Shown here: one piece after another, positions 1,062 to 63,420 of the stretch | Position numbering within the stretch: the stretch's first letter is position 1 | Layout of the letters: each line of letters starts with the position of its first letter | Made by a program: the position numbers and the translations under genes | The notes under the pieces: generated by a model | What the model was told of the DNA's origin: nothing | Databases searched by the model: none | Seen by the model: only the letters and a program-made list of their open reading frames with translations | From: Candidatus Spongiisociaceae bacterium | Lineage (GTDB): Bacteria > Actinomycetota > Acidimicrobiia > Spongiisociales > Spongiisociaceae | Assembly (NCBI GenBank): GCA_965202665.1 | Contig: OZ241841.1 | Location: 453,743 to 517,742, forward strand | DNA: 64,000 nucleotides | Direction: 5' to 3'

Positions 1062-2387
1062 CTAGGGGGCGGGCCCGGCGCGGGCGGGCGGTTTTACGGT
1101 TCTGGTCGAGGGCGGAGGGGCGTTGGGCGGTTTGCTCCGGGGCCGGGTTTGCCATCTTTTTCCATTTTTTTCCAATTCCAGGTTGTGTTCCTGCAACTGC
1201 CGGTGATGGGGCCCGCACAGCAAAGCCAAGTTGTCGATGTCGGTGGGACCCCCGTCGCGCCAGTCCAGCAGGTGATGCAAATCCGTCTGGTGGGAAGAAA
1301 TGTCGCATCGGACGCATCCCCGATCCCGCACCGCGGCGGCCAGCCGTTGCGCGTCGTTGCCCAAGCGACGGCTGCGTCCCAGCCACAGCACCCGCCCGTC
1401 GCCGCCGAAGATAATCCCGCACACGTTGTCGTCCGGGGAGAGGTCCGCCAACAGGGAAGGCGGAACCGGCCCGCTGCCCAAAATCTCGCATGACCCGTCG
1501 GGGCGGGTCCCGTCCAACAACCCCAGGTCGGCCACTACCACCAACTGCGTAACCGCTTTACCCGACTTATTGTCGGGAAGGGGACGCATGGTGTCGGCGT
1601 CCCGGCCGGTCAACAGTTCCACCAAAGCGTCCGCCCGCCGTTGCGGGTTGGTGCGGATGTCATCGGGATGAGCCTCCCCGCCGGAGTCGGCCCGCCGCAG
1701 ATTCTCGGCGTGCAAGTCCAAGGCCTGCCGCACCTGCCCGAACCGGATGGGATCCAACTCGGCGTGCAAGATTCCCATCCCGGTTCCCGGTTCGGTGAAC
1801 ATTTTCACTTTCCGCAGGCGCCGTTGCCGTTCCAGCAGTTTCTCCCCCCGGTCGGCGGAGTGGGCGTTGGCCCACTGCTTGGCCTCCTTGCGGAAATGGT
1901 CCGGGTTGGTTCGGGCGGCGTTCTCCAACAAGTCCCGGTTCTGATCGACCTGCGCCGCCCCGCACTCCCCCGCCGCCGCGGTCAGCGCCGTGGCGTTCTC
2001 CAAAGTGATCTCCCCCGCCTGCAACTTGGCCCGCGTGTTGGGCATCTCCTCCAACTTCTGCGCTACCCGTGAGAGGTGCTTGGCCCCATGGTTGGTCATG
2101 CCCAACTGGTCCCGCAACACATGGTCCGCCCCGGCCCCTCCGTCGGCGCGGCTCAGTTGTCCGGCCAAGTCGCATTTCAAAGAGGACACCTGGGCTTCCA
2201 TCCGTTTCACCGTCTCCGCCAGCTCGCCCAACGCCGCCCGGGACAGGCCCGCCCCCACCTGCCCGCGCAACTCAGCCACGGCGTCGGCGGTGGCGGCCTC
2301 GGCCCGCTGGCAGACCCGCCGCAACTTGTCGGTAATAGGGTTGTGCTGTTTCATAGTGTTCACCATAGTAAATAGAGGGTGTGACAT
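1062..2387 (-). CDS. DUF222 (13E12-repeat) domain protein with C-terminal HNH endonuclease motif
   Basis: 441-aa ORF. The C-terminal ...DIDNLALLCGPHHRQLQEHNLE is the HNH signature, and the N-terminal architecture is typical of actinobacterial DUF222-HNH proteins. Alternative starts are M at 2354 or 2387. Confidence 0.7.
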   Translation of the reverse strand: MSHPLFTMVNTMKQHNPITDKLRRVCQRAEAATADAVAELRGQVGAGLSRAALGELAETVKRMEAQVSSLKCDLAGQLSRADGGAGADHVLRDQLGMTNHGAKHLSRVAQKLEEMPNTRAKLQAGEITLENATALTAAAGECGAAQVDQNRDLLENAARTNPDHFRKEAKQWANAHSADRGEKLLERQRRLRKVKMFTEPGTGMGILHAELDPIRFGQVRQALDLHAENLRRADSGGEAHPDDIRTNPQRRADALVELLTGRDADTMRPLPDNKSGKAVTQLVVVADLGLLDGTRPDGSCEILGSGPVPPSLLADLSPDDNVCGIIFGGDGRVLWLGRSRRLGNDAQRLAAAVRDRGCVRCDISSHQTDLHHLLDWRDGGPTDIDNLALLCGPHHRQLQEHNLELEKNGKRWQTRPRSKPPNAPPPSTRTVKPPARAGPAP

Positions 2388-2436
2388 TTTTGGATTGTAT
2401 AGGGTATAACCGATTAGAGAACTATATTATTCCCAT

Positions 2437-2465
2437 ATTCTACATTATTTAAAAATATCTGTCAA
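2437..2465 (-). promoter_or_regulatory. Sigma70-like promoter (TTGACA-17 bp-TAGAAT) in an AT-rich island, reading toward the HNH gene
   Basis: The reverse complement of 2437-2465 reads TTGACAgatatttttaaataatgTAGAAT. The 2390-2470 stretch is strikingly AT-rich compared with the ~70% GC flanks. Confidence 0.45.
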
Positions 2466-2599
2466 ATCGGAAGATGCCAGTAGTAGGAAAGGGCACAGGA
2501 AAAATCAAGGAACGGCGAGCGGGGGTGGAGGCGCCGATCCCGACCGCCAGTTTCCCGCCATGGGGCTGGCAACGGCTCGCGTTGGGCGGCGGGCTCTAA

Positions 2600-3060
2600 G
2601 AAAACTTTTCGCGTTCTCGAAAAATTTAAAAATTCGGGGTACCCACCCACCCCCCGCCCACCCGCCCATAACATACGGCGATTTTTTGGAAAATTCAAGG
2701 GGGGCGATAGAGATATTTTTCGCGTTCTGGAATACCGCCGATGGCCACCGGCTTCCAGGTCAAGTTCCGCATGGGGCCACAGTGATATTTTTCGCGTTCT
2801 GGAATACCGGGGCCGCGAAGGCAACCGCCTGGGGTGTGCTTTCCGCACCCACCCCAAACATCACGCCACTAGCCGAACCGGAACCGCGAAAGCAACCGCC
2901 AGAAGCATGCTCACCGCACCCACCCTAAACGTTGCGCCGCTGGCTGAACCGGAACCGCGAAGGCAACCGCCAGAAGCATGCTTGCCGTTTAGCCACCACT
3001 TCCTTTCCTCCGTCCGATGAGGCGCAACGCGAAGGCAATCGCCTGGGGCGTACTGCTGTT
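2600..3060. repeat. Degenerate ~70-bp tandem direct repeats, noncoding
   Basis: TTTTCGCGTTCT(G/C)G occurs at 2606, 2718 and 2790. GAACCGGAACCGCGAA(A/G)GCAACCGCCAGAAGCATGCT occurs at 2874 and 2944. GCGAAGGCAA(C/T)CGCCTGGGG occurs at 2815 and 3030. GCACCCACCC(C/T)AAAC occurs at 2845 and 2915. The period is ~69-73 bp. Confidence 0.6.
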
Positions 3061-3084
3061 TCAGCCGTACACCGGGTCAGTGGC

Positions 3085-3150
3085 CGAATGCCTGCTGGGC
3101 GGGGGCGGCGGCCTCGTGGGGGTGTTGCAGGATGTTGTTCCAGATCCATA
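3085..3150 (-). pseudogene. Relic 3'-end fragment of a fourth DUF1156-family methyltransferase copy
   Basis: The reverse complement reads ...IWNNILQHPHEAAAPAQQAFGH*. Compare the paralog C-termini ...[20 protein letters not shown]. The DNA motif GGCGGCCTCGTGGG(G/C)GTGTTGCA..GTTGTTCCAG is shared with the 3' ends at 3177-3226 and 5999-6050. Confidence 0.55.
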
Positions 3151-3157
3151 GGAAGGG

Positions 3158-5536
3158 TCAGGATTGAAAGATTTGCTGGGATGGGGCGACGGCCTCGTGG
3201 GCGTGTTGCAAAAGGTTGTTCCAGGAAACAATCAGCGAATTATAAGCCACCGCATCCTCAGTGCGACCGGCTCCGTTGGCCACCTCATACAGCAAGTAGG
3301 CCAGATGACGGGCGTAGTCGCCCAAACCCGGTCCCGCCCGAGCCAGCAACACCCCGGCCTGGGCATCCGACCTGCCCTGGCGGGCCACCAAATGCTGAGT
3401 GAGCTCCCACACCGTCAACCGCCGATCCTCCGCCGGATCCCACTCCGGATCCAACTCATCCCTGGTCAACAACCGCACTCGGCCCCCTTTGGATTCCGCC
3501 ACCTCCGCCTCCACCACCCCCGACACTGACGTGTTCATCGCCTTCGCCAACGTCTCCGCATCCCCAAACGGACCCGGCTGATGACCGAACTGCCGATACC
3601 AGGTAAGGGCGAACCTGCTGTCGGCATCCAAATCGGTCTCCTCCTGGGACAGGATTTCCTCCAGCACCCCGTTAATCAGAGCCAGGGCGGTGCGTACCCG
3701 CATCGTGGAACCGTCTGCTTCCACCACCCGCTTATACCGGGAGAACACCCGCATACCCGGCCCGATAGCCGACTGCGCCATATCCACCGGCGGGATAGCC
3801 TGCTCCTGCAACAAACCCACCGCCTCCGGCAACTCCTCCCGCAACGCCGCCAAAAACCCACCCCGCGTCTCCAACCGAGCATCCACCCCCCGAGGCCGAC
3901 AAGCCAACACCACCGACGACGACAACGCCGCGGCACCCTCGGCCACCGCCCGATTCGCCATCTCAGTTCGAACCGGCCAAGTCGCAGTAACCTCTAACCC
4001 AGCATCCACCAAGCCCTGCAAAAACGTCTCCCAACCGGTAGATGTTGTTGTCCCCTCTTTTATTTCCTGCTGTTTGAAACCATAAAAAAGGGTTGACGGA
4101 AAGTCGGAATGTTGATTTTGGGCTATCTGTTCCATTACTGCCAACATCCCCGACTCAAAATGTTTCCTCGCGTCATCTTGGGAACCTGCTCTCCAAGTAT
4201 TAGAAACCAACTCATCTTTTTTTGGCGTCTGCAAGGTAGCACACTCATCCGGCCACACATCCGACAGATTATGACGAAGCCACACATAGAAAAAATCAGA
4301 TATATCCGCATACTGAATATTGTCATAGTAGGGAGGATCAGTGCAAACAAGCGGTCTCTCCACTTCAACCAACCGAGCTGCCGCATCCCGTTGTAAAATC
4401 TCCCCAATATCGGAAGCTGGAAAATGAGCAACAGCCTTCGCTACCCAGTTCACCTGCCCCAGCCAGTTACCAGTTGATCCAGAAAATGGATTAACCTCAG
4501 CATAATCCCAAATCATCGCTATTGCCTGCCTTCCGAATGTACAACGGATTTTTTCGGATCTGTTTTGCCAACTGCACACTGAGGACCAGTAATCGGCGCA
4601 CCTATCAACTGCGAAAGCCAAATAGGTAACCAACGCATCAGCATACGCAACTACGCCCAACCCACCATCACGAACCCTTGTTCCATCATCAATCCACCCA
4701 ACATTACGAATATCCTGCTCAACCTTCTCTCTCAATTCGGATAACAAATCGGAAAAGGTCGTCAAAGCAACCAACTGACGAGAAGTAAACAAATCACCCC
4801 ACTCGGTCATACCATACGCAGGAACACTGTCAGTAGCTTTTCCTTGTAACTTACCAGATGGCCTCCATCGTGGCTCCGGAACATCCGGTTTTTCAGGTGG
4901 CGATACGTACTCGCGACCTCTGCTCCCTTCAACTACAGCACCTATACATTCTTCCCTCATCAATCCACGCTGACCCTGCTCCCTTACATATCCGAGCGCA
5001 ATCGGCGCTCCGGTCGCCACGCAGATGCCTCCTCCCCTGGCGATGGTGCCTCCCTTTGGAGTTCCGCCTTCCCTCACCTGGTAGGTCACTGTTTGGGTGT
5101 CCCGGTTCACAATCGGTTCTACCCACACCACCGGCTTGCCCGGCTTGTTGCGCAGCACCCCAGATTTGAGCAGGGGCACATGGCCTTTCCAGGACGGGTC
5201 GGGGGACTGGACGGTCCTGGCCCACAACCAGGCAATCACCGTTTTGCCATCCACCTTTGGGTATAGATGGCCTATTTGTTCCCACGCCCGCTCCCGCATC
5301 CACTCTCCGTAGTATCTGATGTCCTCGGCTAAACCCTGCGCACCCTTCCAAGTCTTCAACCCCGACTCCCCACGGCTGACGGGATTGACCGGGGGCCGTC
5401 CCGCGAAGCGAGGCGGAATCTCCACCATCGCCTTTGTTATCAAGACGGGGACGGGGTTTAGATCGCCCCCGTAAGCGGACAGGCCCAACCGTTGGGCCTC
5501 TAGTGGAATCGTCCCGCCGCCGCAGAACGGGTCCAA
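3158..5536 (-). CDS. DNA methyltransferase, DUF1156-family paralog 1, catalytic body (motif I DPFCGGGT, motif IV DPPY). It is separated from its N-terminal domain by a frameshift inside a (GT)12 tract.
   Basis: 792-aa ORF starting [15 protein letters not shown], then ...[22 protein letters not shown]. The frame stays open upstream through the dinucleotide repeat as (HT)n. It is 90-99% identical to copies 2 and 3 at both ends and divergent in the middle. Confidence 0.8.
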   Translation of the reverse strand: MDPFCGGGTIPLEAQRLGLSAYGGDLNPVPVLITKAMVEIPPRFAGRPPVNPVSRGESGLKTWKGAQGLAEDIRYYGEWMRERAWEQIGHLYPKVDGKTVIAWLWARTVQSPDPSWKGHVPLLKSGVLRNKPGKPVVWVEPIVNRDTQTVTYQVREGGTPKGGTIARGGGICVATGAPIALGYVREQGQRGLMREECIGAVVEGSRGREYVSPPEKPDVPEPRWRPSGKLQGKATDSVPAYGMTEWGDLFTSRQLVALTTFSDLLSELREKVEQDIRNVGWIDDGTRVRDGGLGVVAYADALVTYLAFAVDRCADYWSSVCSWQNRSEKIRCTFGRQAIAMIWDYAEVNPFSGSTGNWLGQVNWVAKAVAHFPASDIGEILQRDAAARLVEVERPLVCTDPPYYDNIQYADISDFFYVWLRHNLSDVWPDECATLQTPKKDELVSNTWRAGSQDDARKHFESGMLAVMEQIAQNQHSDFPSTLFYGFKQQEIKEGTTTSTGWETFLQGLVDAGLEVTATWPVRTEMANRAVAEGAAALSSSVVLACRPRGVDARLETRGGFLAALREELPEAVGLLQEQAIPPVDMAQSAIGPGMRVFSRYKRVVEADGSTMRVRTALALINGVLEEILSQEETDLDADSRFALTWYRQFGHQPGPFGDAETLAKAMNTSVSGVVEAEVAESKGGRVRLLTRDELDPEWDPAEDRRLTVWELTQHLVARQGRSDAQAGVLLARAGPGLGDYARHLAYLLYEVANGAGRTEDAVAYNSLIVSWNNLLQHAHEAVAPSQQIFQS

Positions 5537-5567
5537 GACTTTGATGTTTTGGAGGGCTTTTAGATGG

Positions 5568-5921
5568 TTAGTGTGTGTGTGTGTGTGTGTGTGTTACTAC
5601 ACTATTTATGATTTCTTGACGAGCCTCATCCAAAACATCCTGATCGTTGCTACTCTCCCAACGCACCAACCGTTCCAGAACGCCGAACAGACGCTTGCGC
5701 TCAATCTTCTGGTCTTCCACCGTTGGGAAAACATCCGGACGGGAAGACGGATCATCCACCAGCGACGCCCACAACACCGCCCGCGCCGCCGCCAACGGAC
5801 GACGGGCCCACCACAAATGCAAAGTCGAAGGATGGCCGTGACGAATAGACTTCTCGCGGGCCGACTCCCGGCTTATCACCTCCAACGGCAACGCCACCTC
5901 AATAAGTTTCCTTTTTTTCAA
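5568..5921 (-). CDS. N-terminal DUF1156 domain fragment of methyltransferase paralog 1 (terminates right after the (GT)12 tract)
   Basis: ORF 5568..5948. [58 protein letters not shown], then ...[12 protein letters not shown]. The probable start is the TTG at 5921, 4 nt after GGAGG. The product is encoded as (TH)n from the repeat, then TAA. Confidence 0.7.
5569..5592. repeat. (GT)12 dinucleotide simple-sequence repeat inside methyltransferase paralog 1 (inter-domain linker)
   Basis: gtgtgtgtgtgtgtgtgtgtgtgt at 5569-5592. A repeat length congruent to 1 mod 3 (for example 11 or 14 units) would fuse 5568..5921 with 3158..5536 into one ~920-aa ORF. Confidence 0.9.
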
Positions 5922-5985
5922 GCAACCTCCCAGAGCAAAGCCGTGCAAAAGCCTACCTGCACCACATCCGGGGGGTGGGGCAGGA

Positions 5986-8688
5986 TTAGAGGGTTTGCTG
6001 GAAGGGGGTGGCGGCCTCGTGGGCGTGTTGCAGGATGTTGTTCCAAGACAGGACCAGCGAATTGTAGGCTACCGCGTCCTCGGTGCGGCCGGTGCTGTTG
6101 GCCGCCTCGTATAACAGGTAGGACAAATGACGGGCTTGGTCGCCCAAACCGGGTCCCGCCTTCGCCAGCAACCACCCGGCTTGGGCGTCCGACCTGGCCT
6201 GGCGGGCCGCCATATGCTGAGTGAGCTCCCACACCGTCAACCGCCGATCCTTCGGCGGATTCCACTCCGGGTCCAACTCGTCCCTGGTCAGCAACCGCAC
6301 CTTGCTCCCCTTGGACTCCGCCACACCGGCATCCACTACCCCGGACACCGACGTGTTCATCGCCTTCGCCAACGTCTCCGCATCCCCGAACGGACCCGGC
6401 TGATGGCCAAACTTCTTATACCAAGTCAGGGCGAACCGGCTGTCGGCATCCAAATCGGCCTCCGCCGTTGACAGGACTTCTTCCAGCACCCCGTTAATCA
6501 GAGCCAAAGCGGTGCGCACCGGCATTGTGGAGCCGTCCGCTTCCACCACCCGGCGATACCGGGAGAACACCCGCATGCCCGGGCCGATAGCCGACTGCGC
6601 CATATCCACCGGCGGGATGGCCTGCTCCTGCAACAACCACACCGCCTCCGGTAACTCTTCCCGCAACGCCGACAAAAACCCGCCCCGCGTCTCCAACCGC
6701 GCATCCACCGACCGAGGCCGACACACCAACACCACCGACGACGACAACGCCGCGGCGCCCCTGGCCGCCGCCCGATTCGCCCTCTCGGTTCGAATCGGCC
6801 ATGTGGCGGTTACTTCTAAGCCGGCATCCACCAAACCCTGCAACATCTCCCAGCCGCCTGATTTCACGTCCTGCTGTTTGAAAGCGCAAAAGATCGTCGC
6901 TGGAAAGTCAGCGTGTTGATTATGGGCTATCTGTTTCATTACCGCGGACATTCCCGACTCAAAATATTCTCTTGCTTTATCTTGCGAACCCGCTCGTTGA
7001 ACATTAGCTACCAGTTCTTCTTTCTTTGGCGTCTGCAAAGTGGCGCACTCTTCCGGCCACACATCCGACAGGTTACGACGAAGCCATACATAGAAAAAAT
7101 CGGAAATATCCGCATATTGAATGTTATCATAATGGGGCGGGTCTGTACAAATAACCGGTCTCTCCACTTCAACCAATCGGGCTACCGCATCTCCTTGCAA
7201 AACCTCCCCGGTATCAGAACCCGGCAAATTGGCAACGGCCTTTGCTATCCACTCCACCTGCCCCATCCAGTTACCGGTTGACCCAGAAAACGGATTACCC
7301 TCAACATAATCCCAAATCATCGCTATTGCTTGCCTTCCAAATGTACCGCGAATGATTTCCCTACTGCTATTCCAACTGCACATTGAAGACCAATAATCGG
7401 CGCACCTGTCAACTGCGAAAGCCAAATAGGTTACCAAAGCATCAGCATAGGCGACCACACCCGACCCGTCATCCCGAAGCCTGATTGCATCATCAACTCC
7501 ACTCACGCTGCGGGCGTCTCGCTCAACCATCTCCCTCATCTCGGATAGCAAATCAGAAAAGGTCGTCAGGGCAACCATCTGACGAACGGTAAACAAATCC
7601 GCCCACTCATTTATCCCATACAAGGAAACATTGCTACCTGCTTTTCCTTGTAACTTACCGGATGGCATCCATCGCGGCTCCGGAACATCCGGCATTATGG
7701 GCGGAACGACATATTCACAACCGCCACTACCTTCAACCACTGCGCATACGCACGCTTCCCCCATCAACCCCCGCTGACCTTGCTCTCTTACATAATGGAG
7801 CGTAATGGGGGCTCCGGTCGCAACGCAGACGCCCCCGCCCCTGGCGATGGTGCCTCCTTTAGGCGTTCCGCCTTCCCTCACCTGAAAGGCCACCGTTTGG
7901 GCATCCCGATTTGCTATTGGCTCCACCCACGCCGCCGGTTTGCCCGGCTTGTTGCGCAACACCCCGGATTTGAGCAGGGACACATGGCCTTTCCAGGCCG
8001 GGTCGGGGGACTGGACGGTTCTGGCCCACAACCAGGCGATCACCGTTTTGCCATCCACCTTCGGATACAGACGGCCGATACGCTCCCAGGCTCGCTCCCG
8101 CATCCACTCCCCGTAAAAACGGATGTCCGCGGCCAACCCCTGCGTCCCCTCCCAAACCTTCGAACCCGACTCGGCAAGGCGGGAAGGATTGACCGGCGGC
8201 CGTCCCGCAAAGCGGAACGGGATCTCCACCATCGCCTTCGTTATCAAAACCGGAACCGGATTCAAATCGCCCCCGTACGCGGACAGGCCCAAACGTTGGG
8301 CCTCCAACGGAATCGTCCCGCCCCCGCAGAAGGGGTCCAACACGTTGGGCAAATCATCCCCGCACGACGCCCCAATCTCGGCCTTGGCTTCAGCCAACAC
8401 CTCCTGATTGTTGCTGTTTTCCCACACCACCAAGCGTTCCAAAATGTCAAACAGGCGCTTGCGCTCCCTCTTCTGGTCTTCAACCTTAGGGAACCTGCCG
8501 GGATGGGCGGACGGGTCGTCCACCAGCGACGCCCACAACACCGCCCGCGCCGCCGCCAACGGACGGCGGGCCCACCACAAATGCAAAGTGGAAGGATGGC
8601 CGTGCCGGATGGATTTCTCCCGGGCCGACTCCCGACTGATCGCCTCCAACGGCAACGCCACCTCAATCAGTTTTCTTTTCAGATTCAA
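5986..8688 (-). CDS. DNA methyltransferase, DUF1156-family paralog 2 (intact, no SSR in linker)
   Basis: 900 aa, starting (M)[42 protein letters not shown], then ...[15 protein letters not shown]...[22 protein letters not shown]. The start is the TTG at 8688, preceded by GGGAGGTGG. The linker is [17 protein letters not shown] with no repeat. Confidence 0.85.
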
Positions 8689-8751
8689 ACCACCTCCCAG
8701 AGCAAACCGCCAAAAGCCTACCCCGCATCACATTCCAAGGGAAGGTCGGGA

Positions 8752-11541
8752 TTAGAGGGTTTGCTGGACGGGGGCGACGGCCTCGTGGGCGTGTTGCAGA
8801 AGGTTGTTCCAGGAAACAATCAGCGAATTGTAAGCCACCGCATCCTCAGTGCGGCCAGCACTGTTGGCCACCTCATACAGCAAGTAGGCCAGATGACGGG
8901 CATAGTCGCCCAAACCCGGTCCCGCCCGAGCCAGCAACACCCCGGCCTGGACATCCGACCGGCCCTGGCGGGCCACCAAATGCTGAGTAAGCTCCCACAC
9001 CGTCAACCGCCGATCCTCCGCCGGATCCCACTCCGGGTCCAACTCATCCCTGGTCAACAACCGCACCTTGCCGCCCTTAGATTCCGCCACCTCCGCCTCC
9101 ACCACCCCCGACACCGACGTGTTCATCGCCTTCGCCAACGTCTCCGCATCCCCAAACGGACCCGGCTGATGCCCAAACTGCCGATACCAGGTAAGGGCAA
9201 ACCGGCTGTCGGCATCCAAATCGGTCTCCTCCTGAGACAGGATTTCCTCCAGCACCCCGTTAATCAAGGCAAGGGCGGTGCGCACCCGCATCGTGGAACC
9301 GTCCGCTTCCACCACCCGCTTATACCGGGAGAACACTCGCATACCAGGTCCGATAGCCGACTGCGCCATATCCACCGGAGGAATGGCCTGCTCCTGCAAC
9401 AACCCCACCGCCTCCGGCAATTCTTCCCGCAACGCCGCCAAAAACCCACCCCGCGTCTCCAACCGAGCATCCACCGACCGCGGCCGACAAGCCAACACCA
9501 CCGACGACGCCAGTAACGCTTTAGTCTTAGAACCCAATTTTCCAGGCCTTTCAGTCCGAATAGGCCAAGTCGCAATTACCTGCAAACCAGCATCCACCAG
9601 ACTTTGCAGAAACGTCTCCCAACCGGTAGATGTAGTCTCACCAGATTTGATCTCCTTCTGTTTGAAAGCATAGAAAATCGTCGACGGGAAATCGGGATGT
9701 TGATTATGGGCTATCTGCTCCATCACTTTAAACATTCCTGACTCAAAATGTTCTTTTGCTACTTCTTTGGACCCTGCTCGCCAACGATTAGCAACTAACT
9801 CCTCTTTCTTTGGCGTCTGTAGTGTTGAACATTCATCTGGCCATACATCCGACAGGTTACGACGGAGCCATACATAGAAAAAATCTGAAATATCGGCATA
9901 AAAAATATTATCATAATAAGGCGGATCCGTACTAATAACCGGTCTTTCCACCTTACCTAACTGTGCTACTGCATCTCGTTGCCAAATATCACCAAACGGC
10001 GAACTTGGTAAATGAGCAACGGATTTAGCTACCCATTCAATCTGGCCTAACCAATTACCAGTTGAAAAAGAGAATGGGTTGGCTTCCGCAAAGTCCCAAA
10101 CCATACCTATTACCTGCCTACCAAAAAGGCTTGCGATTTTTTCGGCACCGTCCTGCCATCTTGATAAGCTATTCCATCGGTCAGTACACCTATCTATAGC
10201 AAAAGCTAGGTATGTTATAACTGCATCTGCATAGGCAATATTACCAATCCCACCATCCCTGAAACCTCTTTTCTCATTAGTCAGTCCCCTGTGAATTGCG
10301 TCTTCCTCTACCATCGCTCTTATGTCTAATAGTAAATCGGAAAAGATATTTAAAGCAATCAACTGGCGATTAGTAAACAAGTCTCCCCACTCAATCATCC
10401 CGTACAAAGGAACATTACCTGAGGCCTTGCCATGCAAAGTACCAACAGGCATCCAGAAAGGTGCCGGAATATCGGGTATTACAGGCGCAGAAACATACTC
10501 ACGACCTCTGCTTCCTGCAACTACAACCCCTATACATACTTTTCGTATTAATCCTTTCTTGCCTTGCTCCTTAATATAATCGAGCAAAATCGGGGCACCG
10601 GTCGCAATGCAGACACCTCCTCCCCTCCCAATAGTGCCTCCACTCGGCGTTCCACTTTTCCTTACTTGGTAGATCACTGTTTGGGTATCCCGGTTCACAA
10701 TTGGCTCTACCCACACCACTGGCTTGCCCGGCTTGTTGCGTAGCACCCCGGATTTGAGCAAGGGCACGTGGCCTTTCCAGGACGGGTCGGGGGACTGTAC
10801 CGTCCTAGCCCACAACCAGGCGATCACCGTTTTGCCATCCACCTTTGGGTATAGATAACCTATTTGTTCCCACGCCTTCTTTCGCATCCACTCTCCGTAG
10901 TATCTGATGTCCTCTGCTAAACCCTGCGCTCCCTTCCAAGTCTTCAACCCCGACTCCCCACGACTGACAGGGTTGACCGGCGGCTGTCCCGCGAACCGAG
11001 GTGGGATTTCCACCATCGCCTTGCTGATTAGTACTGCAACAGGGTTTAGGTCACCCCCATACGCGGAGAGGCCCAAACGTTGGGCCTCCAGTGGAATCGT
11101 CCCTCCCCCACAGAAGGGATCTAAAACCTTGATTTTTGATAGAATCTCTGCTAGGTTATCATTAGCTGTTGTGTTGTGTTGTGTTGTGTTGTGTTGTGTT
11201 GTGTTGTGTTGTGTTGTGTTGTGTTGGCTATTTGCGATTTCTCTTCGGGCTTGATCCAACACGTCCTGGTTGTTGGAATTTTCCCAAACCACAAGCCTTT
11301 CCAGGATTCCGAATAGTCTTTTTCTCTCGACCTTTTGATCTTCTGCGGTGGGGAACTGGTCGGGGTGGGAGGACGGGTCATCCACCAGCGACGCCCACAG
11401 CACCGCCCGCGCCGCCGCCAGCGGGCGGCGGGCCCACCATAGATGCAGGGTGGAAGGGTGGCCGTGCCGGATGGCTTTCTCGCGGGCGGATTCCCTGCTT
11501 ATGGCCTCCAGGGGCAGGGCTACTTCTATCAGTTTCTTCAT
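8752..11541 (-). CDS. DNA methyltransferase, DUF1156-family paralog 3 (in-frame (GTGTT)12 linker repeat)
   Basis: The ORF track gives 8752..12360. The real start is the ATG at 11541 ([40 protein letters not shown]); upstream of that the frame overlaps rsmI. The linker is ...[45 protein letters not shown]. Confidence 0.85.
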   Translation of the reverse strand: MKKLIEVALPLEAISRESAREKAIRHGHPSTLHLWWARRPLAAARAVLWASLVDDPSSHPDQFPTAEDQKVERKRLFGILERLVVWENSNNQDVLDQARREIANSQHNTTQHNTTQHNTTQHNTTANDNLAEILSKIKVLDPFCGGGTIPLEAQRLGLSAYGGDLNPVAVLISKAMVEIPPRFAGQPPVNPVSRGESGLKTWKGAQGLAEDIRYYGEWMRKKAWEQIGYLYPKVDGKTVIAWLWARTVQSPDPSWKGHVPLLKSGVLRNKPGKPVVWVEPIVNRDTQTVIYQVRKSGTPSGGTIGRGGGVCIATGAPILLDYIKEQGKKGLIRKVCIGVVVAGSRGREYVSAPVIPDIPAPFWMPVGTLHGKASGNVPLYGMIEWGDLFTNRQLIALNIFSDLLLDIRAMVEEDAIHRGLTNEKRGFRDGGIGNIAYADAVITYLAFAIDRCTDRWNSLSRWQDGAEKIASLFGRQVIGMVWDFAEANPFSFSTGNWLGQIEWVAKSVAHLPSSPFGDIWQRDAVAQLGKVERPVISTDPPYYDNIFYADISDFFYVWLRRNLSDVWPDECSTLQTPKKEELVANRWRAGSKEVAKEHFESGMFKVMEQIAHNQHPDFPSTIFYAFKQKEIKSGETTSTGWETFLQSLVDAGLQVIATWPIRTERPGKLGSKTKALLASSVVLACRPRSVDARLETRGGFLAALREELPEAVGLLQEQAIPPVDMAQSAIGPGMRVFSRYKRVVEADGSTMRVRTALALINGVLEEILSQEETDLDADSRFALTWYRQFGHQPGPFGDAETLAKAMNTSVSGVVEAEVAESKGGKVRLLTRDELDPEWDPAEDRRLTVWELTQHLVARQGRSDVQAGVLLARAGPGLGDYARHLAYLLYEVANSAGRTEDAVAYNSLIVSWNNLLQHAHEAVAPVQQTL
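11166..11225. repeat. (GTGTT)12 pentanucleotide simple-sequence repeat inside methyltransferase paralog 3
   Basis: ctgtt followed by 11 gtgtt units, 60 nt in total, encoding (QHNTT)4 in frame. A change of one or two units gives a frameshift. Confidence 0.9.
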
Positions 11542-11555
11542 CGGGGCAACCTTAG

Positions 11556-12380
11556 TTACTTGGCCCGGAGCGTGGCCTGATATAGGGCCCGGCGGCTTAG
11601 GCCTGTGTTTTCGGCTACTTGGCGCACTGCGTCCGACATGGCCGCGCCCGCCTCCATTCGGGACAGCACTTCGGTTACCGCTTCGTCCAGCGGGGCTTCC
11701 CCGGCCTCCGCCCCCTCGACGACCAGGGTGAATTCGCCTTGGGGCTTTTCCGACCCCCATTTTTCCTCCGCCTCCTCCAGCGTGCCCCACCATATTTCTT
11801 CGTGCATTTTGGTCAGCTCCCGGGCGGCGCACGTCCGCCGGTGGCCGCCCAGGGCTTCGGCCAAACTTTCCAGGTCGTCCAACAGGTGGTGGGGGGCGAT
11901 GAACAGCACCATCGGGCGTTCCTCCCCGGCCAAGGATTCCAGGCGCCGGGCGCGGTCGCCTCCTTTGCGGGGCAGAAACCCTTCGAACGTGAACCGGTCG
12001 GCGGCGAACCCGGATACGGCCAGGGCGGCCGGGACGGCGCAGGGGCCGGGAATCACCGACACTTCCGCCCCGGCCCGCAGGGCGTCCGCCACCGCCCGGC
12101 GCCCCGGATCGGCCACCCCCGGCGTCCCGGCGTCGGTGATCAGGGCCGCCGTCCCCCCCGCCTCCAACATGCGCGCCAGCCGCTCCGACTTCTGCGCTTC
12201 GTTGCCCGCGTAATAAGATTCGGGGCGGACGGACGCCCCGCAATGTTCCAGCAAAATCCGGGCCCGGCGGGTGTCTTCGGCGAACACCGCGTCCGCTTCC
12301 CGCAACGTTTCCAGCAGGCGGGCGGAAACATCCCCCAGGTTGCCGATGGGGGTGGCGCACAGAATCAGCCGGCCGCTCAT
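11556..12380 (-). CDS. rsmI: 16S rRNA (cytidine1402-2'-O)-methyltransferase RsmI
   Basis: 274 aa. MSGRLILCATPIGNLGDVSARL...ITDAGTPGVADPG...TFEGFLPRKG...TKMHEE is the RsmI/tetrapyrrole-methylase fold. The start is the ATG at 12380. The ORF-track N-terminal extension is spurious. Confidence 0.85.
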   Translation of the reverse strand: MSGRLILCATPIGNLGDVSARLLETLREADAVFAEDTRRARILLEHCGASVRPESYYAGNEAQKSERLARMLEAGGTAALITDAGTPGVADPGRRAVADALRAGAEVSVIPGPCAVPAALAVSGFAADRFTFEGFLPRKGGDRARRLESLAGEERPMVLFIAPHHLLDDLESLAEALGGHRRTCAARELTKMHEEIWWGTLEEAEEKWGSEKPQGEFTLVVEGAEAGEAPLDEAVTEVLSRMEAGAAMSDAVRQVAENTGLSRRALYQATLRAK

Positions 12381-13927
12381 TCTTCGGCCCTCATCTGGGC
12401 GGCGGCCCGTCTTCCCGCCTCGGCGTCGTCGGCCACCACCAAAGTCAGCGTCTCCCCCTGTCGGCCCAGCAGGGCGTACACGTCCCCGCCCGGCCATTCC
12501 AAAGTGGTGCCCGACAGGGTGGAAATCCCCACCGGCAACCCGCCCACCAGGTCCACCAGGGCGGCGGCCATGCGCGAGGCGTCCGCGAAAGAGTCGCCCC
12601 GGTAGCGCACCGCCCACACCAGATGCCCCCGCTCCGGGTTCCACAGCAGTTGGAACCGGTCGCCCCCCCATCCCCGGGCGGCGTCGGCGGCCTGCGCGAA
12701 CCGGCCTCCGCCGCCCAGCAGGGCCCGCCATCCCCGTTCCCCCCAAGTTCCCTCCTCCGCCGTCTCGTAGCCTTCCAACGCCACCGCGAACGGCTCCAGC
12801 GGGACGGGCGGCTCCATCCGGTTGTACAGGTCGGGGTGCAGCACCTGTTCGGTGGAGACGGGCGGGGCGGCCAAAGCCCGGTCCAACCCGGTCGTCCCCT
12901 CCTGCCGGTAAAGATGCAGGGCCAGGGCGGAACCGGCCGCCGTCGCGAACCGGGCCTGCTCCGCCAGGAAGGGCGGCCCCTGGGCGAACCCGGGCCGGGC
13001 GTCGGCCGCGGCCTGCTCGGCCAGGGCCGCCCGCCGCTCCTCCGGCAGGGCGTCGGCGTACAAGGTCTGAACGAGGGCCGCCTCCCCGGCCAGCAACGCC
13101 CCCACGGCAGCCGCCCGGTCGGGATCGCCGTCTTCCGCCAAAGCCGAATGTTCCTCCACCGTTTCCGGATAGTGCAGATGGGCCAGCATCCGGGTCAAAG
13201 CCCCCGCCAGGGCCCACTGCTGATACTCGTCCAACCCGTCCAAGCCCTCCCCCTCCCCCTCAGGTTGCGCCCCCTCCGGCGACGCAGCGTCTTCCCCTTC
13301 CCCCTCAGGTTGCGCCTGCGGCGGCGGGTCTTCTTCCCCGTCCGGCGGCTCCTCCCCCTCCCCCGCTTCGGCCTCCTCGGCGGGTTGCGGGGGGTCGGGG
13401 GTCAGCGGGATCACCACCCGTCCCCGTTCCGCCTGGTAGAAGGGCAGTTCCGGGGTGCGCCCCGTTTGAAAAGAACGGTAGAAGGATTCCAGGTCGGCTT
13501 CGGGGGGGAGCAGGTTGAACAAGTCCAGAAAAGCCCGCTCATAGTCTTCCGGGACGGTTGGGGGGGCCTCCGCCGCAGGTTGCGTCACCACCAACGGGAG
13601 GGAAGGAAACTTTCTCCCCCGCAACTGTTCGACGCGGGCGGTCAACTCGTTCACCTGTTCTTCCAAAGCACCGGGCAGGGGCGGACGGGGGGGGACGGTG
13701 GTGGTCGTGGTAGGCGGGAGGGTGGTGGTGGTGACGACGCGGGTGGCAGGGGGGACGGTGGTGGCGACGGAAACGGCGGAGGTGGCGGCCGGCGCGGCGG
13801 ACGGGGGCGGGGCGGTGGGCCCGGCGGTTTCGGAACCGCACCCGGCGACTACCGCCAGCAGGACGGACAGTATCGTCGCCCGCAACGCGGGGCGGTTGAA
13901 TATCACGGGTTTCACGGGCGATGCCAA
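12377..13927 (-). CDS. Putative lipoprotein of unknown function (Pro/Glu-rich linker). Its stop overlaps the rsmI start in an ATGA overlap.
   Basis: 516-aa ORF with signal peptide and lipobox (LLAVVAGCGSE), a (T/P)-rich segment, and an acidic PEGEGE low-complexity insert. High-GC codon usage is consistent with a real gene. Confidence 0.5.
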   Translation of the reverse strand: MASPVKPVIFNRPALRATILSVLLAVVAGCGSETAGPTAPPPSAAPAATSAVSVATTVPPATRVVTTTTLPPTTTTTVPPRPPLPGALEEQVNELTARVEQLRGRKFPSLPLVVTQPAAEAPPTVPEDYERAFLDLFNLLPPEADLESFYRSFQTGRTPELPFYQAERGRVVIPLTPDPPQPAEEAEAGEGEEPPDGEEDPPPQAQPEGEGEDAASPEGAQPEGEGEGLDGLDEYQQWALAGALTRMLAHLHYPETVEEHSALAEDGDPDRAAAVGALLAGEAALVQTLYADALPEERRAALAEQAAADARPGFAQGPPFLAEQARFATAAGSALALHLYRQEGTTGLDRALAAPPVSTEQVLHPDLYNRMEPPVPLEPFAVALEGYETAEEGTWGERGWRALLGGGGRFAQAADAARGWGGDRFQLLWNPERGHLVWAVRYRGDSFADASRMAAALVDLVGGLPVGISTLSGTTLEWPGGDVYALLGRQGETLTLVVADDAEAGRRAAAQMRAEE

Positions 13928-15499: not shown

Positions 15500-15781
15500 A
15501 TGCACCAGCAAACCAACCCAATGTTTGAAACACCGCCAAAGATAGCACTGTGGGCAGTCGTAACATTACTGTTAGCAGGTTGCGCTAGTGCCTCCAACAG
15601 CTCCTCTGCGTCCACCATCAACGATGGGATTGTTCCATTGTATTTGGAGGAGGTGGTTCCGCCGTGTGTTCCCACTGAGTTGGAACCTGATCCTTGTCCG
15701 CCGGATTTACCTGCTCATATTGTAGAATCTAACCATCAGGGGCTTGCTGCCGTGCTTATGCGTGGTTCCTTCCTTCAATGA
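15500..15781 (+). CDS. Lipoprotein signal-peptide ORF (probable N-terminal part of the following surface protein, separated by a frame change)
   Basis: MHQQTNPMFETPPKIALWAVVTLLLAGCASASNS carries a lipobox LAGC. It ends at 15781, where GC content drops abruptly. Confidence 0.4.
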   Translation: MHQQTNPMFETPPKIALWAVVTLLLAGCASASNSSSASTINDGIVPLYLEEVVPPCVPTELEPDPCPPDLPAHIVESNHQGLAAVLMRGSFLQ

Positions 15782-17030
15782 AAGGCTATTGTGGGATCCC
15801 CAAATGGATGGATCTAGTAGTATCCATATTGTTGTAAGAGGAACTGTTAAAACCAACACTACCAGATGCGATCTCTATAAAGATAAAGTAGCTGATTATG
15901 TAGTAAAGTTATATACAACAATTCGTGTGGTTGATCAATACCTAGTAGATTATTATGATTATAATTGCTTTGCAGAAGTCGCAGTGAAAGAATATATAGT
16001 AGGCGAAGGCCCACCTTCTCTAACAGTAATAACTTATAAACAAGGTATGCATAGGAGTCATCTAGATTCTGAGGGAAATGTTAGTGATTATTTCTTAGAA
16101 TATATTGATCCCAAAACGAAAGCAATCGCTCATGAAGGTAGAGAAATTATCTTTTTCCTGGGTCCTTCTCCGTCTATAGAAGTAGAGGCCTGGGCTGGAT
16201 TAGGGGGTGGAAGCATGTGGTTCCTGCAACAGACCGAAGATGGCATAAGGGCCATAGCTGATTACTATCGAATAGCCGTACTAGAAGAACATCGCCAAAA
16301 ATTGAATCTGCCGCTAGATGAAATGATAGAAGACATCAAACAAGCCGCCATAAATAGAGCCACCCTGACCGGAGGACGGATAGGAACCGATCCGGAACTA
16401 CCCATGTATATTACCGATGCCAACAAACTACGCGACCACTATATCGAAGTAGGAGCCGTATACGATGCTACCGAACAAGCAACCAAATTACCTCCACCGG
16501 TTCCTGGGGAAGGTGATCCTCCTGCGCCTACTATTCCAACCAACGATGGAACGACGGGAACCACCGTACCGGCACCGGGGGCAGAACCGACCATTCCACC
16601 ACCGACGGATGATGCGGGACTTTCCATCGAGCAGGAAACCACAACCACCACCGAAACAACTACTACCACCACCACCACCACAACAGAGGTTGCGTCCGTA
16701 GTGTCGACCACTACCGAACCGGTGGCAACCACGACCACTACTGCGGGAACCGTAACGGAACCTGTCACTGGTACGACTACCACATCCACCACAACTACAT
16801 CGGAACCACCGGGCGGGGAAAATGATGCTCCGTCTGTGAATGTCGGTCCTCCGGAAGAAGAACAGACCACCACCACTACAGAAACGCCAGAGTCAGGGGA
16901 AGGCGACATTCCGGAGGAAACCCCCTCAACAACCGTCCCAGCCGGCGACAGCATTCCCCCGCCCGCCGAAGACAACCAACCCGGCCAAGAACCGGCGCCT
17001 GCCGGCCCGGTTGATGAACCCGCAAGCTAA
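15744..17030 (+). CDS. Thr/Pro-rich secreted or surface protein of unknown function. Its N-terminal domain is encoded by an AT-rich (~40% GC) island.
   Basis: 428-aa ORF. 15790-16480 is AT-rich. The C-terminal half is TTTTTETTTTTTTTTT..PPPAEDNQPGQEP low-complexity linker. There is no signal peptide in this frame, whereas the upstream ORF in another frame supplies one. This suggests a frameshift or pseudogene. Confidence 0.45.
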   Translation: MLPCLCVVPSFNERLLWDPQMDGSSSIHIVVRGTVKTNTTRCDLYKDKVADYVVKLYTTIRVVDQYLVDYYDYNCFAEVAVKEYIVGEGPPSLTVITYKQGMHRSHLDSEGNVSDYFLEYIDPKTKAIAHEGREIIFFLGPSPSIEVEAWAGLGGGSMWFLQQTEDGIRAIADYYRIAVLEEHRQKLNLPLDEMIEDIKQAAINRATLTGGRIGTDPELPMYITDANKLRDHYIEVGAVYDATEQATKLPPPVPGEGDPPAPTIPTNDGTTGTTVPAPGAEPTIPPPTDDAGLSIEQETTTTTETTTTTTTTTTEVASVVSTTTEPVATTTTTAGTVTEPVTGTTTTSTTTTSEPPGGENDAPSVNVGPPEEEQTTTTTETPESGEGDIPEETPSTTVPAGDSIPPPAEDNQPGQEPAPAGPVDEPAS

Positions 17031-33004: not shown

Positions 33005-33032
33005 ACGCTACCCCCCCCCCCCAATTTGTCAA
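33005..33032 (-). promoter_or_regulatory. Promoter-like element of paralog A: TTGACA-aatt-G12-TAGCGT (16-bp spacer)
   Basis: The + strand reads acgcta C12 aatt tgtcaa. It lies ~52 nt upstream of the start codon. The same element precedes all five paralogs with G-tract lengths of 11-13. Confidence 0.5.
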
Positions 33033-38687: not shown

Positions 38688-38714
38688 ACGCTACCCCCCC
38701 CCCCAATATGTCAA
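38688..38714 (-). promoter_or_regulatory. Promoter-like element of paralog B: TTGACA-tatt-G11-TAGCGT (15-bp spacer)
   Basis: The + strand reads acgcta C11 aata tgtcaa. It is a variant with the duplicated -35 region TTGACTTGACA. Confidence 0.45.
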
Positions 38715-45982: not shown

Positions 45983-46011
45983 ACGCTACCCCCCCCCCCC
46001 AATTTGTCAAA
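45983..46011 (-). promoter_or_regulatory. Promoter-like element of paralog C: TTGACA-aatt-G13-TAGCGT (17-bp spacer)
   Basis: The + strand reads acgcta C13 aatt tgtcaa. Confidence 0.5.
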
Positions 46012-53298: not shown

Positions 53299-53325
53299 AC
53301 GCTACCCCCCCCCCCAATTTGTCAA
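53299..53325 (-). promoter_or_regulatory. Promoter-like element of paralog D: TTGACA-aatt-G11-TAGCGT (15-bp spacer)
   Basis: The + strand reads acgcta C11 aatt tgtcaa. Confidence 0.5.
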
Positions 53326-60561: not shown

Positions 60562-60590
60562 ACGCTACCCCCCCCCCCCAATTTGTCAAA
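60562..60590 (-). promoter_or_regulatory. Promoter-like element of paralog E: TTGACA-aatt-G13-TAGCGT (17-bp spacer)
   Basis: The + strand reads acgcta C13 aatt tgtcaa. Confidence 0.5.
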
Positions 60591-62400: not shown

Positions 62401-63420
62401 TCAGGCGGGGGAGGGAAGGGCCGCCATCTTCTCAATCAGATCCACCACCCGGTTGGAGTATCCCCATTCGTTGTCGTACCAGGAGATCACTTTCACCAGG
62501 TTGCCCCCCAGGACTTCGACGGCGGCGGCGTCGAAGATGCTGGAATGGGCGTTGCCGATGATGTCGGAGGAAACCAGCGGTTCGTCGCAGAACTCCAAGA
62601 TGTCCGACATCGGCCCAGCCGCCGCCCGGCGCACCGCTTCCCGCACCTCCTCGGCGTCCACCTCCCGGGAAACTTCCACCACCAGATCCACCAACGAGCC
62701 GTCCGGCACCGGCACCCGCATGGCCAGCCCGTCCAGACGGCCGTTCAACTCGGGGAGCACCTTGCCCACCGCCTTGGCGGCCCCGGTGGTGGTGGGGATG
62801 ATGTTCTCGGTGGCGGCCCGCGAACGGCGGAAGTCCTGGTGGGGGACGTCGGCCAGCCGCTGGTCGTTGGTGTAGGCGTGGACGGTGGTCATCACCCCCC
62901 GCTCAATCCCGAACTCGTCGTGCAGCACTTTGGCCAGCGGGGCCAGGCAGTTGGTGGTGCAGGAGGCGTTGGACACGATGCGGGCGGAGCCGTCCAAATC
63001 CCCGTCGTTCACCCCCAGCACGATGGTGGCGTCTATCTCGTCTTTGGCGGGGACGGTCAGCAGCACCCGCCCGGCCCCCGCCGCCAAATGCTTCTCCAAG
63101 TCGGCCCGGGTGGTGAAAACCCCGGTGGATTCCACCGCCACGTCCACCCCCAGTTCGGCCCAGGGCAGGTCCGCCGGGTCCCGTTCCCGCAACATGCGGA
63201 TGTGATGGCCGCCCACGGTCATCACCCCTTCGCCCACCGTTATCCGGCGATCCAGGGTTCCCATCACCGAATCGCGGCGCAACAGGTAGGCCAGCAGGTC
63301 GTTGTCGGCCAAGTCGTTGACCGCTACCACGTTGATGGGGGCGTCCGGCCGTTCCAAGACGATGCGCAACACCGCCCGGCCGATGCGGCCGAACCCGTTG
63401 ATGGCCACCCGGGCGGTCAT
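62401..63420 (-). CDS. gap: Type I glyceraldehyde-3-phosphate dehydrogenase
   Basis: 339 aa, with INGFGRIGR, the SNASCTTNCLAP catalytic Cys loop, and WYDNEWGYS. Confidence 0.9.
   Translation of the reverse strand: MTARVAINGFGRIGRAVLRIVLERPDAPINVVAVNDLADNDLLAYLLRRDSVMGTLDRRITVGEGVMTVGGHHIRMLRERDPADLPWAELGVDVAVESTGVFTTRADLEKHLAAGAGRVLLTVPAKDEIDATIVLGVNDGDLDGSARIVSNASCTTNCLAPLAKVLHDEFGIERGVMTTVHAYTNDQRLADVPHQDFRRSRAATENIIPTTTGAAKAVGKVLPELNGRLDGLAMRVPVPDGSLVDLVVEVSREVDAEEVREAVRRAAAGPMSDILEFCDEPLVSSDIIGNAHSSIFDAAAVEVLGGNLVKVISWYDNEWGYSNRVVDLIEKMAALPSPA

Follow-up and report, generated by a model that had tools for sequence, protein, structure and literature searches.

A perfect pentanucleotide repeat, (CAACA)12, lies in frame inside a methyltransferase gene of an uncultured member of the Acidimicrobiia, and natural alleles of the repeat differ in length, so that the gene is either read to its end or cut short. 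From these sequences we conclude that the repeat probably serves as a slipped-strand ON/OFF switch (a contingency locus) on a solitary methyltransferase of the HmaB type, a reading to which we assign a probability of about 0.8. The gene, termed copy 3, is one of three tandem paralogs in a stretch of 64,000 nucleotides (nt), here called the window, of contig OZ241841.1 from Candidatus Spongiisociaceae bacterium. The genome is ~2.77 Mb in size, and the local GC content is 63–73% outside the methyltransferase cassettes. The best named relatives of GAPDH from the window and of GlmU from the sister genome L001, 60-75% identical, belong to Acidimicrobiia MAGs and Candidatus Spongiisocius, in line with this placement. 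A model that saw only the letters of the window had earlier reported a (GTGTT)12 repeat at 11166-11225 inside methyltransferase copy 3 and had taken it for a switch; we refer to this as the original prediction.

Tract length, reading frame and linker site

Tandem Repeats Finder located the tract one base to the right of the predicted position, at 11167-11226, as (TGTTG)12 in the plus-strand register (12.0 copies, period 5, 100% perfect), which is the same tract in another register. Read in frame, the repeat encodes QHNTTQHNTTQHNTTQHNTT, residues 106-125 of an unbroken open reading frame (ORF) of 929 codons. A long perfect repeat whose unit is not a multiple of three was thus found inside an ORF, at codons 106-125. 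Perfect repeats with units of two bases or more reached at most 16 nt in 200 first-order Markov simulations of the window, compared with the 60 nt observed, and the (CAACA)12 tract is therefore not a chance feature. Homopolymers aside, the only other perfect repeat in the window with a non-triplet unit was the (GT)12 tract of copy 1. Two plus-strand ORFs that run across the tract (10907..11254 and 11169..11555) were taken as spurious antisense ORFs of a high-GC region.

The original prediction held that the present allele is ON, that a change of one or two units shifts the frame and that a change of three preserves it. This arithmetic was borne out when copy 3 was rebuilt with 8 to 16 units: the gene was full length only at 9, 12 and 15 units, and every other number within that range brought a stop 1-6 codons past the tract. 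Copy 1, when rebuilt, was full length only at 10, 13 and 16 AC units. Natural alleles followed the same rule. The CAACA tract had 12 units and was ON in the window, in the sister genome L001 (2.76 Mb, ~95% identical) and in protein P0124, where the number was derived from the protein. In L002, a metagenome scaffold of 96% identity, the tract had the same flanks as in the window but comprised 11 units; the stop followed right after the tract, and the gene was OFF with a product of 124 amino acids (aa; P0121). Likewise, the AC tract was OFF with 12 units in the window and ON with 13 units in L001 (P0143, 922 aa) and 16 units in L107 (P0004, 921 aa). Tract length therefore differed between close strains, and the ON/OFF state tracked the frame at both repeats (CAACA 11/12; AC 12/13/16). 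The alignment of related loci, which had been proposed as a check, showed that both the unit number and the repeat type vary. A fixed in-frame linker without length polymorphism, the finding that was to count against a switch, is contradicted by the 11-unit OFF allele of L002, because natural alleles differ in length and obey the frame.

Apart from the shift at the repeat, the OFF alleles appeared intact, so that the change would be reversible. All six that were examined had 792-846 stop-free codons 3' of the repeat in the alternative frame (811 in copy 1 of the window). Each OFF allele thus appears to need a single slippage step to become ON, which speaks against decay. Among the 120 best database matches, 34 were products of 711-797 aa without DUF1156, all from the close clade. 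DNA was fetched for four of these 34, and all four were split at a repeat; on this ground the remaining short products are read as C-terminal ORFs of OFF alleles.

The repeats of copies 3 and 1 occupy homologous positions, in agreement with the prediction: in the DNA alignment both tracts follow the conserved GAAATC..AAATAG and both precede ATCAARGTYTTRGAYCC of motif I. The proposal that different repeat types sit at a permissive inter-domain linker also held, since seven repeat units occur there in close homologs, the canonical linker has no repeat and the loop is disordered in the structural model. The homologs with other repeats at this site were 64-78% identical over their full length. At the DNA level we read (CAACC)11 in L022 (ON), (TC)13 in L023 (ON) and (AACA)10A(AAAC)19 at the rsmI-linked position of the 3.17-Mb genome L021 (OFF); (TCCAA)n in P0005 and (AG)n in P0029 are deduced from the periodicity of the SNPIQ and RERE peptides. 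Such a variety of repeat units in one place is unusual. Canonical members of the family and copy 2 have a fixed 41-residue linker without a repeat, and copy 2 is the sole copy in the window that has none. Non-triplet repeats were also sought, as a control, in 1.14 Mb from 98 family loci that are more distantly related, and none of these loci carried one (0/98).

In the AlphaFold (AF2) model of copy 3, residues 112-123, inside the repeat, were the only part of the N-terminal half with a predicted local distance difference test (pLDDT) score below 50. This low-confidence stretch is flanked on one side by helix 92-110, which closes the DUF1156 helical domain, and on the other by helix 126-135, from which the chain enters strand 138-141 of motif I. 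The repeat is accordingly predicted by the model to occupy a disordered, insertion-tolerant loop between the DUF1156 domain and motif I. A scan of GTDB species representatives yielded relatives of at most 64% identity, mostly 44-50%, and a scan of JGI metagenome contigs returned only distant, repeat-free canonical relatives and no further alleles of the CAACA tract. An exact look-up of the window's own protein matched no recorded contig, and the sample accessions did not turn up in the literature.

A different kind of tract was seen in a sister subclade, where the glycine codons of motif I have turned into a G12-G16 homopolymer (DPFCGGGGG). The three loci concerned (L104:9906-9921; L105, ~9907-9918; L106, ~10003-10014) were all frameshifted exactly there (3/3). 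ON relatives of this poly-G subclade (P0002, P0003 and P0012) read DPFCGGGGGP.

The methyltransferase array and its surroundings

Copy 3 was correctly labelled as a methyltransferase: it is one of three paralogs arranged head to tail on the minus strand, all of which contain Pfam DUF1156 (Table 1). It consists of an N-terminal DUF1156 domain, a class I S-adenosylmethionine (SAM)-dependent amino-methyltransferase domain split by a large insert, and a C-terminal helical region. Motif I (FxGxG), motif IV (DPPY) and the Rossmann fold were all found in copy 3, and the two motifs were kept across 86 homologs, in which D141, P142, F143, G145 and G147 were invariant. Both intact copies matched the PADLOC HmaB model end to end (E=0, 1019 bits, and 2.8e-293, 973 bits). 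In copy 3, residues 2-925 were aligned with profile positions 9-960 of the 967 in PDLC00660, and the protein was 57-62% identical to canonical HmaB members that are flanked by HmaA and HmaC. The NCBIfam model NF042963 ("anti-phage-associated DUF1156 protein") matched only in part (residues 443-711) and below its cut-off (106 bits vs 1000); it seems to represent another branch of DUF1156 proteins. The gene is not a Type III Mod gene by its domains or surroundings: the Pfam scan found DUF1156 and a weak UPF0020 match but no N6_N4_Mtase, and no res-like helicase was found nearby.

HmaB is the methyltransferase of Hma, a three-gene candidate defence system of a helicase, a methylase and an ATPase (PMC8565338), which has since been reclassified as a DUF499-centred BREX-related type 1 system (PMC12839542). 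The N6-adenine methyltransferase of that system carries a DUF1156 head, and an insert that follows core strand 2 serves target recognition (PMC12839542). For canonical HmaB itself, DNA methylation is a prediction (PMC11232893).

The usual partners were missing from the loci studied here. HmaA and/or HmaC stood beside the gene at 95 of 98 canonical loci, including all 49 loci of at least 12 kb (tblastn). The repeat clade, by contrast, comprised ten loci, namely the 64-kb window and nine related loci searched within 10 kb, and in none of them did tblastn with two HmaA queries find HmaA, although the same search found it at 78 of the 98 canonical loci. Similarly, HmaC (DUF499 ATPase), which was present at 84 of the 98, had no tblastn match in the window or the repeat-clade loci. 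Because HmaA and HmaC occurred at 0 of 10 repeat-clade loci and the neighbours are housekeeping genes, the genes in the window, on the sequence of these loci, are solitary methyltransferases in a housekeeping neighbourhood.

The gene adjoining copy 3, rsmI (16S rRNA 2'-O-methyltransferase), is a housekeeping neighbour, not a defence partner, and its synteny is repeated in L001, L002, L021 and L107. The syntenic locus of L001 continues with a mazE antitoxin gene, tatD, ksgA, ispE, glmU and prs.

Comparison of the gene bodies showed conserved ends and a variable centre. Between copy 3 and its positional ortholog in L001, residues 1-288 and 681-929 were 98-100% identical and residues 288-680 were 50-78% identical; among the paralogs of the window, both ends were 90-97% identical and the low-GC centre was 57-80% identical. 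This gene layout, characteristic of phasevarions, is therefore found in the copy 3/L001 orthologs and the paralogs alike. The central cassettes (9502-10680, 6600-7800 and 4000-5000) had a GC content 15-25 points below that of the gene ends and the genome, which fits horizontally exchanged specificity modules. Copy number and order also differed among ~95%-identical strains. L002 has a single methyltransferase copy, followed directly by the region found downstream of copy 1 in the window; in L107 an AC-type copy precedes a copy-2-type gene; L001 has three copies, with copy 2 split into 501 + 404 aa. These sequence differences suggest unequal recombination between the near-identical gene ends.

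Copy 2 differs from the family at motif IV. Its sequence there, as in its whole 90%-identity cluster, is DPPH (or NPPH) instead of DPPY, so that a tyrosine at least 90% conserved in the family is replaced; the activity of copy 2 may be altered or reduced.

Downstream of the array lies a DUF222-HNH endonuclease gene, which was also present at L001:13562-14866, L021:14782-16152, L022:14353-15645 and L105:13436-15085. In five loci, two of which have otherwise different surroundings, it stands downstream of the methyltransferase(s) at a distance of one to several genes, and it may be either a passenger on mobile DNA or a functional partner. As the cognate nuclease it was set aside: it recurs near the methyltransferase in five loci but is absent from L104 and L106. 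DUF222-HNH genes are, in addition, multi-copy in actinobacteria, which was part of the reason for this decision. Between copy 1 and the HNH gene there is a non-coding tandem repeat of 71 bp at 2806-2982 (2.5 copies, 83% matches), and a near-consensus promoter-like site, TTGACA-17-TAGAAT, is found at 2465-2437 on the minus strand. A promoter and terminator scan of 2300-12600 gave counts no better than in shuffled sequence.

Table 1. Features of the window (positions are those of the whole 64,000-nt stretch).
Feature	Position	Strand	Remarks
Methyltransferase copy 3	8752..11541	minus	929 aa, intact (ON); ATG 11541, stop 8752
DUF1156 domain of copy 3	11305..11520	minus	residues 8-79; Pfam PF06634, E=6.5e-30, full profile covered
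(CAACA)12 pentanucleotide repeat	11167..11226	minus	in frame, (QHNTT)4, residues 106-125 of copy 3
Motif I of copy 3 (DPFCGGG, SAM binding)	11101..11121	minus	residues 141-147, 15 codons 3' of the repeat
Central variable cassette of copy 3	9502..10680	minus	residues ~288-680; target-recognition insert and part of the core; GC 36-50%
Motif IV of copy 3 (DPPY)	9916..9927	minus	residues 539-542; catalytic motif of amino-methyltransferases
Methyltransferase copy 2	5986..8688	minus	900 aa, intact; canonical linker without repeat
Methyltransferase copy 1	3158..5921	minus	frameshifted at its own repeat (OFF); TTG start 5921 after a GGAGG site
(AC)12 dinucleotide repeat of copy 1, plus-strand (GT)12	5571..5594	minus	window allele OFF
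rsmI (16S rRNA 2'-O-methyltransferase)	11556..12380	minus	ends 14 nt upstream of the copy 3 start
DUF222-HNH endonuclease gene	1062..2387	minus	downstream of the array
ORF in GC trough	15744..17030	plus	428 aa, no Pfam match
Poly-G tracts upstream of giant genes	33011-33022, 38694-38704, 45989-46000, 53305-53315, 60568-60579	minus	
GAPDH gene	62401..63420		

Elsewhere in the window, five tandem giant genes of ~1870-2400 aa had Calx-beta and C-terminal S-layer-homology matches and signal-peptide-like starts (MRRLGLLALA...). Each is preceded by a conserved upstream element, TTGACA-AATT-G(11 or 12)-TAGCGT, in which poly-G fills the spacer between -35-like and -10-like hexamers, the classic arrangement by which surface proteins phase-vary at the level of transcription. 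These five poly-G tracts and the two methyltransferase tracts were the only perfect repeats with a non-triplet unit in the window. A GC trough at 15600-16600 (36-44% vs ~70% in the flanks) coincides with an ORF that holds an imperfect ACC/Thr-rich repeat at 16635-16681 and may be a foreign or surface-protein gene.

A putative switch and its alternatives

In the mechanism that we propose, slipped-strand mispairing during replication would add or remove CAACA units. With a 5-nt unit inside the reading frame, only multiples of three units (9, 12 or 15) would yield the full 929-aa enzyme, and other lengths would leave a peptide of ~120-137 aa that keeps the DUF1156 domain and lacks the catalytic domain. 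The tandem alleles have near-identical 5' and 3' ends and differ in their central specificity cassette. Copy 3, through its pentanucleotide tract, and copy 1, through its dinucleotide tract, would switch independently, with copy 2 devoid of a repeat, and a clonal population could therefore contain up to four methylation states. Switching within a population would be reversible and of high frequency, and the enzymes presumably methylate DNA at N6-adenine in allele-specific motifs. The consequence may be phasevarion-like epigenetic heterogeneity and/or a variable interaction with phages.

Several points weigh against a solitary slippage switch. Partners could be encoded beyond the window, in another part of the 2.77-Mb genome. 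Every length difference was seen between assemblies of 95-96% identity and so represents evolutionary lability, not a measured switching rate. The CAACA tract was sampled in four alleles, three of which had 12 units, and the consensus of a metagenome may misreport repeat lengths, those of poly-G tracts most of all.

This last concern, carried further, would make the length differences artefacts of assembly or sequencing. The comparison sequences are indeed all metagenome assemblies, two of them probably long-read contigs, and homopolymer lengths such as G12-G16 are error-prone. However, perfect 5-nt and 2-nt repeats of 24-60 nt fit in one read and are less error-prone than homopolymers, the splits occur only at repeats and do so across many independent samples and assemblies, and the 13- and 16-unit AC alleles are both in frame; we hold a general artefact to be very improbable. 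That the (QHNTT)4 insert is a fixed, tolerated low-complexity linker with no switching role is hardly credible, even though three of the four sampled alleles have exactly 12 units and a disordered loop could accept any insert. An 11-unit allele with a premature stop exists, a perfect 5-nt unit over 12 copies is not what selection on the peptide would keep, and the seven repeat units at the site in homologs include dinucleotides and a tetranucleotide, with many alleles out of frame; canonical members, for their part, need no insert there. A further account is decay, in which the methyltransferases have lost their defence partners and are turning into pseudogenes, the repeats being mere mutational hot spots and the OFF alleles dead. 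It would explain why the genes are solitary, why about half of the sampled alleles are OFF and why copy 2 of the sister genome L001 is split at another place. It is nevertheless quite unlikely: each of the six OFF alleles examined had a single lesion, at the repeat, with the long open frame beyond it, catalytic motifs I and IV are conserved, sister strains hold ON alleles of the same genes, and the 5' and 3' ends are 90-100% identical across copies and strains.

The same switch could also serve defence. Partners of the HmaA/HmaC type, or other restriction genes, would then lie elsewhere, and switching would vary self-marking or restriction specificity, as with Streptomyces pglX. The family is associated with defence (PADLOC HmaB; PMC8565338, PMC12839542), and two homologs have a GmrSD-like gene and a DarT-macrodomain pair in their vicinity; the BREX-type pglX of S. 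coelicolor phase-varies via a G tract (PMC4365076). On the other hand, neither HmaA nor HmaC was found in the 64 kb of the window or at distances of up to 10 kb in nine related loci, the array stands in a housekeeping context (rsmI, tatD, ksgA, ispE and glmU), and a methyltransferase that is OFF while its restriction partner is active would be self-toxic. We regard a defence purpose as unlikely, though a serious contender.

A slippage switch on a solitary methyltransferase can be extended to a wider picture, which we offer tentatively and consider possible but somewhat doubtful. The lineage would have taken HmaB from its Hma partners, repeatedly evolved slippage repeats (at least seven unit types in one loop, and the poly-G of motif I) and duplicated the gene with exchangeable cassettes. 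This would amount to a combinatorial epigenetic switchboard beside poly-G promoter switches on five giant S-layer-anchored proteins, in an organism that relies on contingency loci, perhaps for bet-hedging against phages. If this is true, a contingency-locus lifestyle, thought typical of small-genome pathogens, would exist in uncultured environmental Acidimicrobiia.

Comparison with known systems

Repeat-driven phase-variable methyltransferases are well documented for Types I, IIG and III, mostly in host-adapted pathogens, and why environmental bacteria should possess them has been described as an open question (PMC5909438). Our literature search found no paper that links DUF1156/HmaB methyltransferases to phase variation and no earlier report for such an organism. 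The present locus adds a different enzyme family, the DUF1156/HmaB proteins of BREX-related systems, and an unusual host, an uncultured member of the Acidimicrobiia with a GC content of 63-73%. It also offers a natural experiment, in which many repeat types share one loop and solitary repeat-bearing genes can be set against canonical repeat-free genes in defence systems. ON and OFF alleles coexist in public metagenomes, so that sorting long-read methylation calls according to tract length could show which motif belongs to each allele, a practical route to what HmaB methylates.

One close parallel is with the phase-variable mod alleles (PMC5909438). These likewise carry a non-triplet repeat inside the methyltransferase ORF that turns the gene ON or OFF by frameshift, have highly conserved 5' and 3' ends around a variable central specificity region, and can occur as several tandem alleles in which the repeat has the same position; some have pentanucleotide units (GCACA[n]), and tandem triplets that share the repeat site occur in Mycoplasma bovis (PMC5909438). 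Unlike the mod alleles, the genes in the window belong to the DUF1156/HmaB family, have no Pfam N6_N4_Mtase match and no res gene, and reside in an uncultured high-GC member of the Acidimicrobiia instead of a host-adapted pathogen. They also differ in that many repeat units occur at one site within one close clade of DUF1156/HmaB genes.

Another parallel is pglX of the Pgl system (BREX type 2) in Streptomyces coelicolor (Sumby and Smith 2003, as cited in PMC4365076), an actinobacterial BREX-related N6-adenine methyltransferase with a repeat-length switch. Its G tract recalls the sister subclade of L104-L106, which is also poly-G. However, pglX belongs to a defence system of several genes that is complete, and loss of pglX relieves both toxicity and defence; the genes in the window, by contrast, stand alone, and the inter-domain loop of copy 3 holds a pentanucleotide tract.

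With the Hma system (PMC8565338, PMC11232893, PMC12839542) the locus shares a full-length HmaB homolog, copy 3. In contrast to that system, which combines the HmaA helicase-nuclease, HmaB and the HmaC DUF499 ATPase, the array has no HmaA or HmaC nearby; and unlike canonical HmaB, in which 0 of 98 loci had a repeat, the linker is repeat-bearing and the gene forms a tandem array of three paralogs. The logic of the frameshift switch is also that of the repeat-containing Type I hsdM/hsdS and Type IIG methyltransferases of pathogens (PMC7383803), from which the present genes differ in enzyme architecture and host range. Taken together, these comparisons support the view that the locus is a repeat-driven phase-variable DNA methyltransferase, an already known type, in an enzyme family and a host lineage for which we found no earlier report of it.

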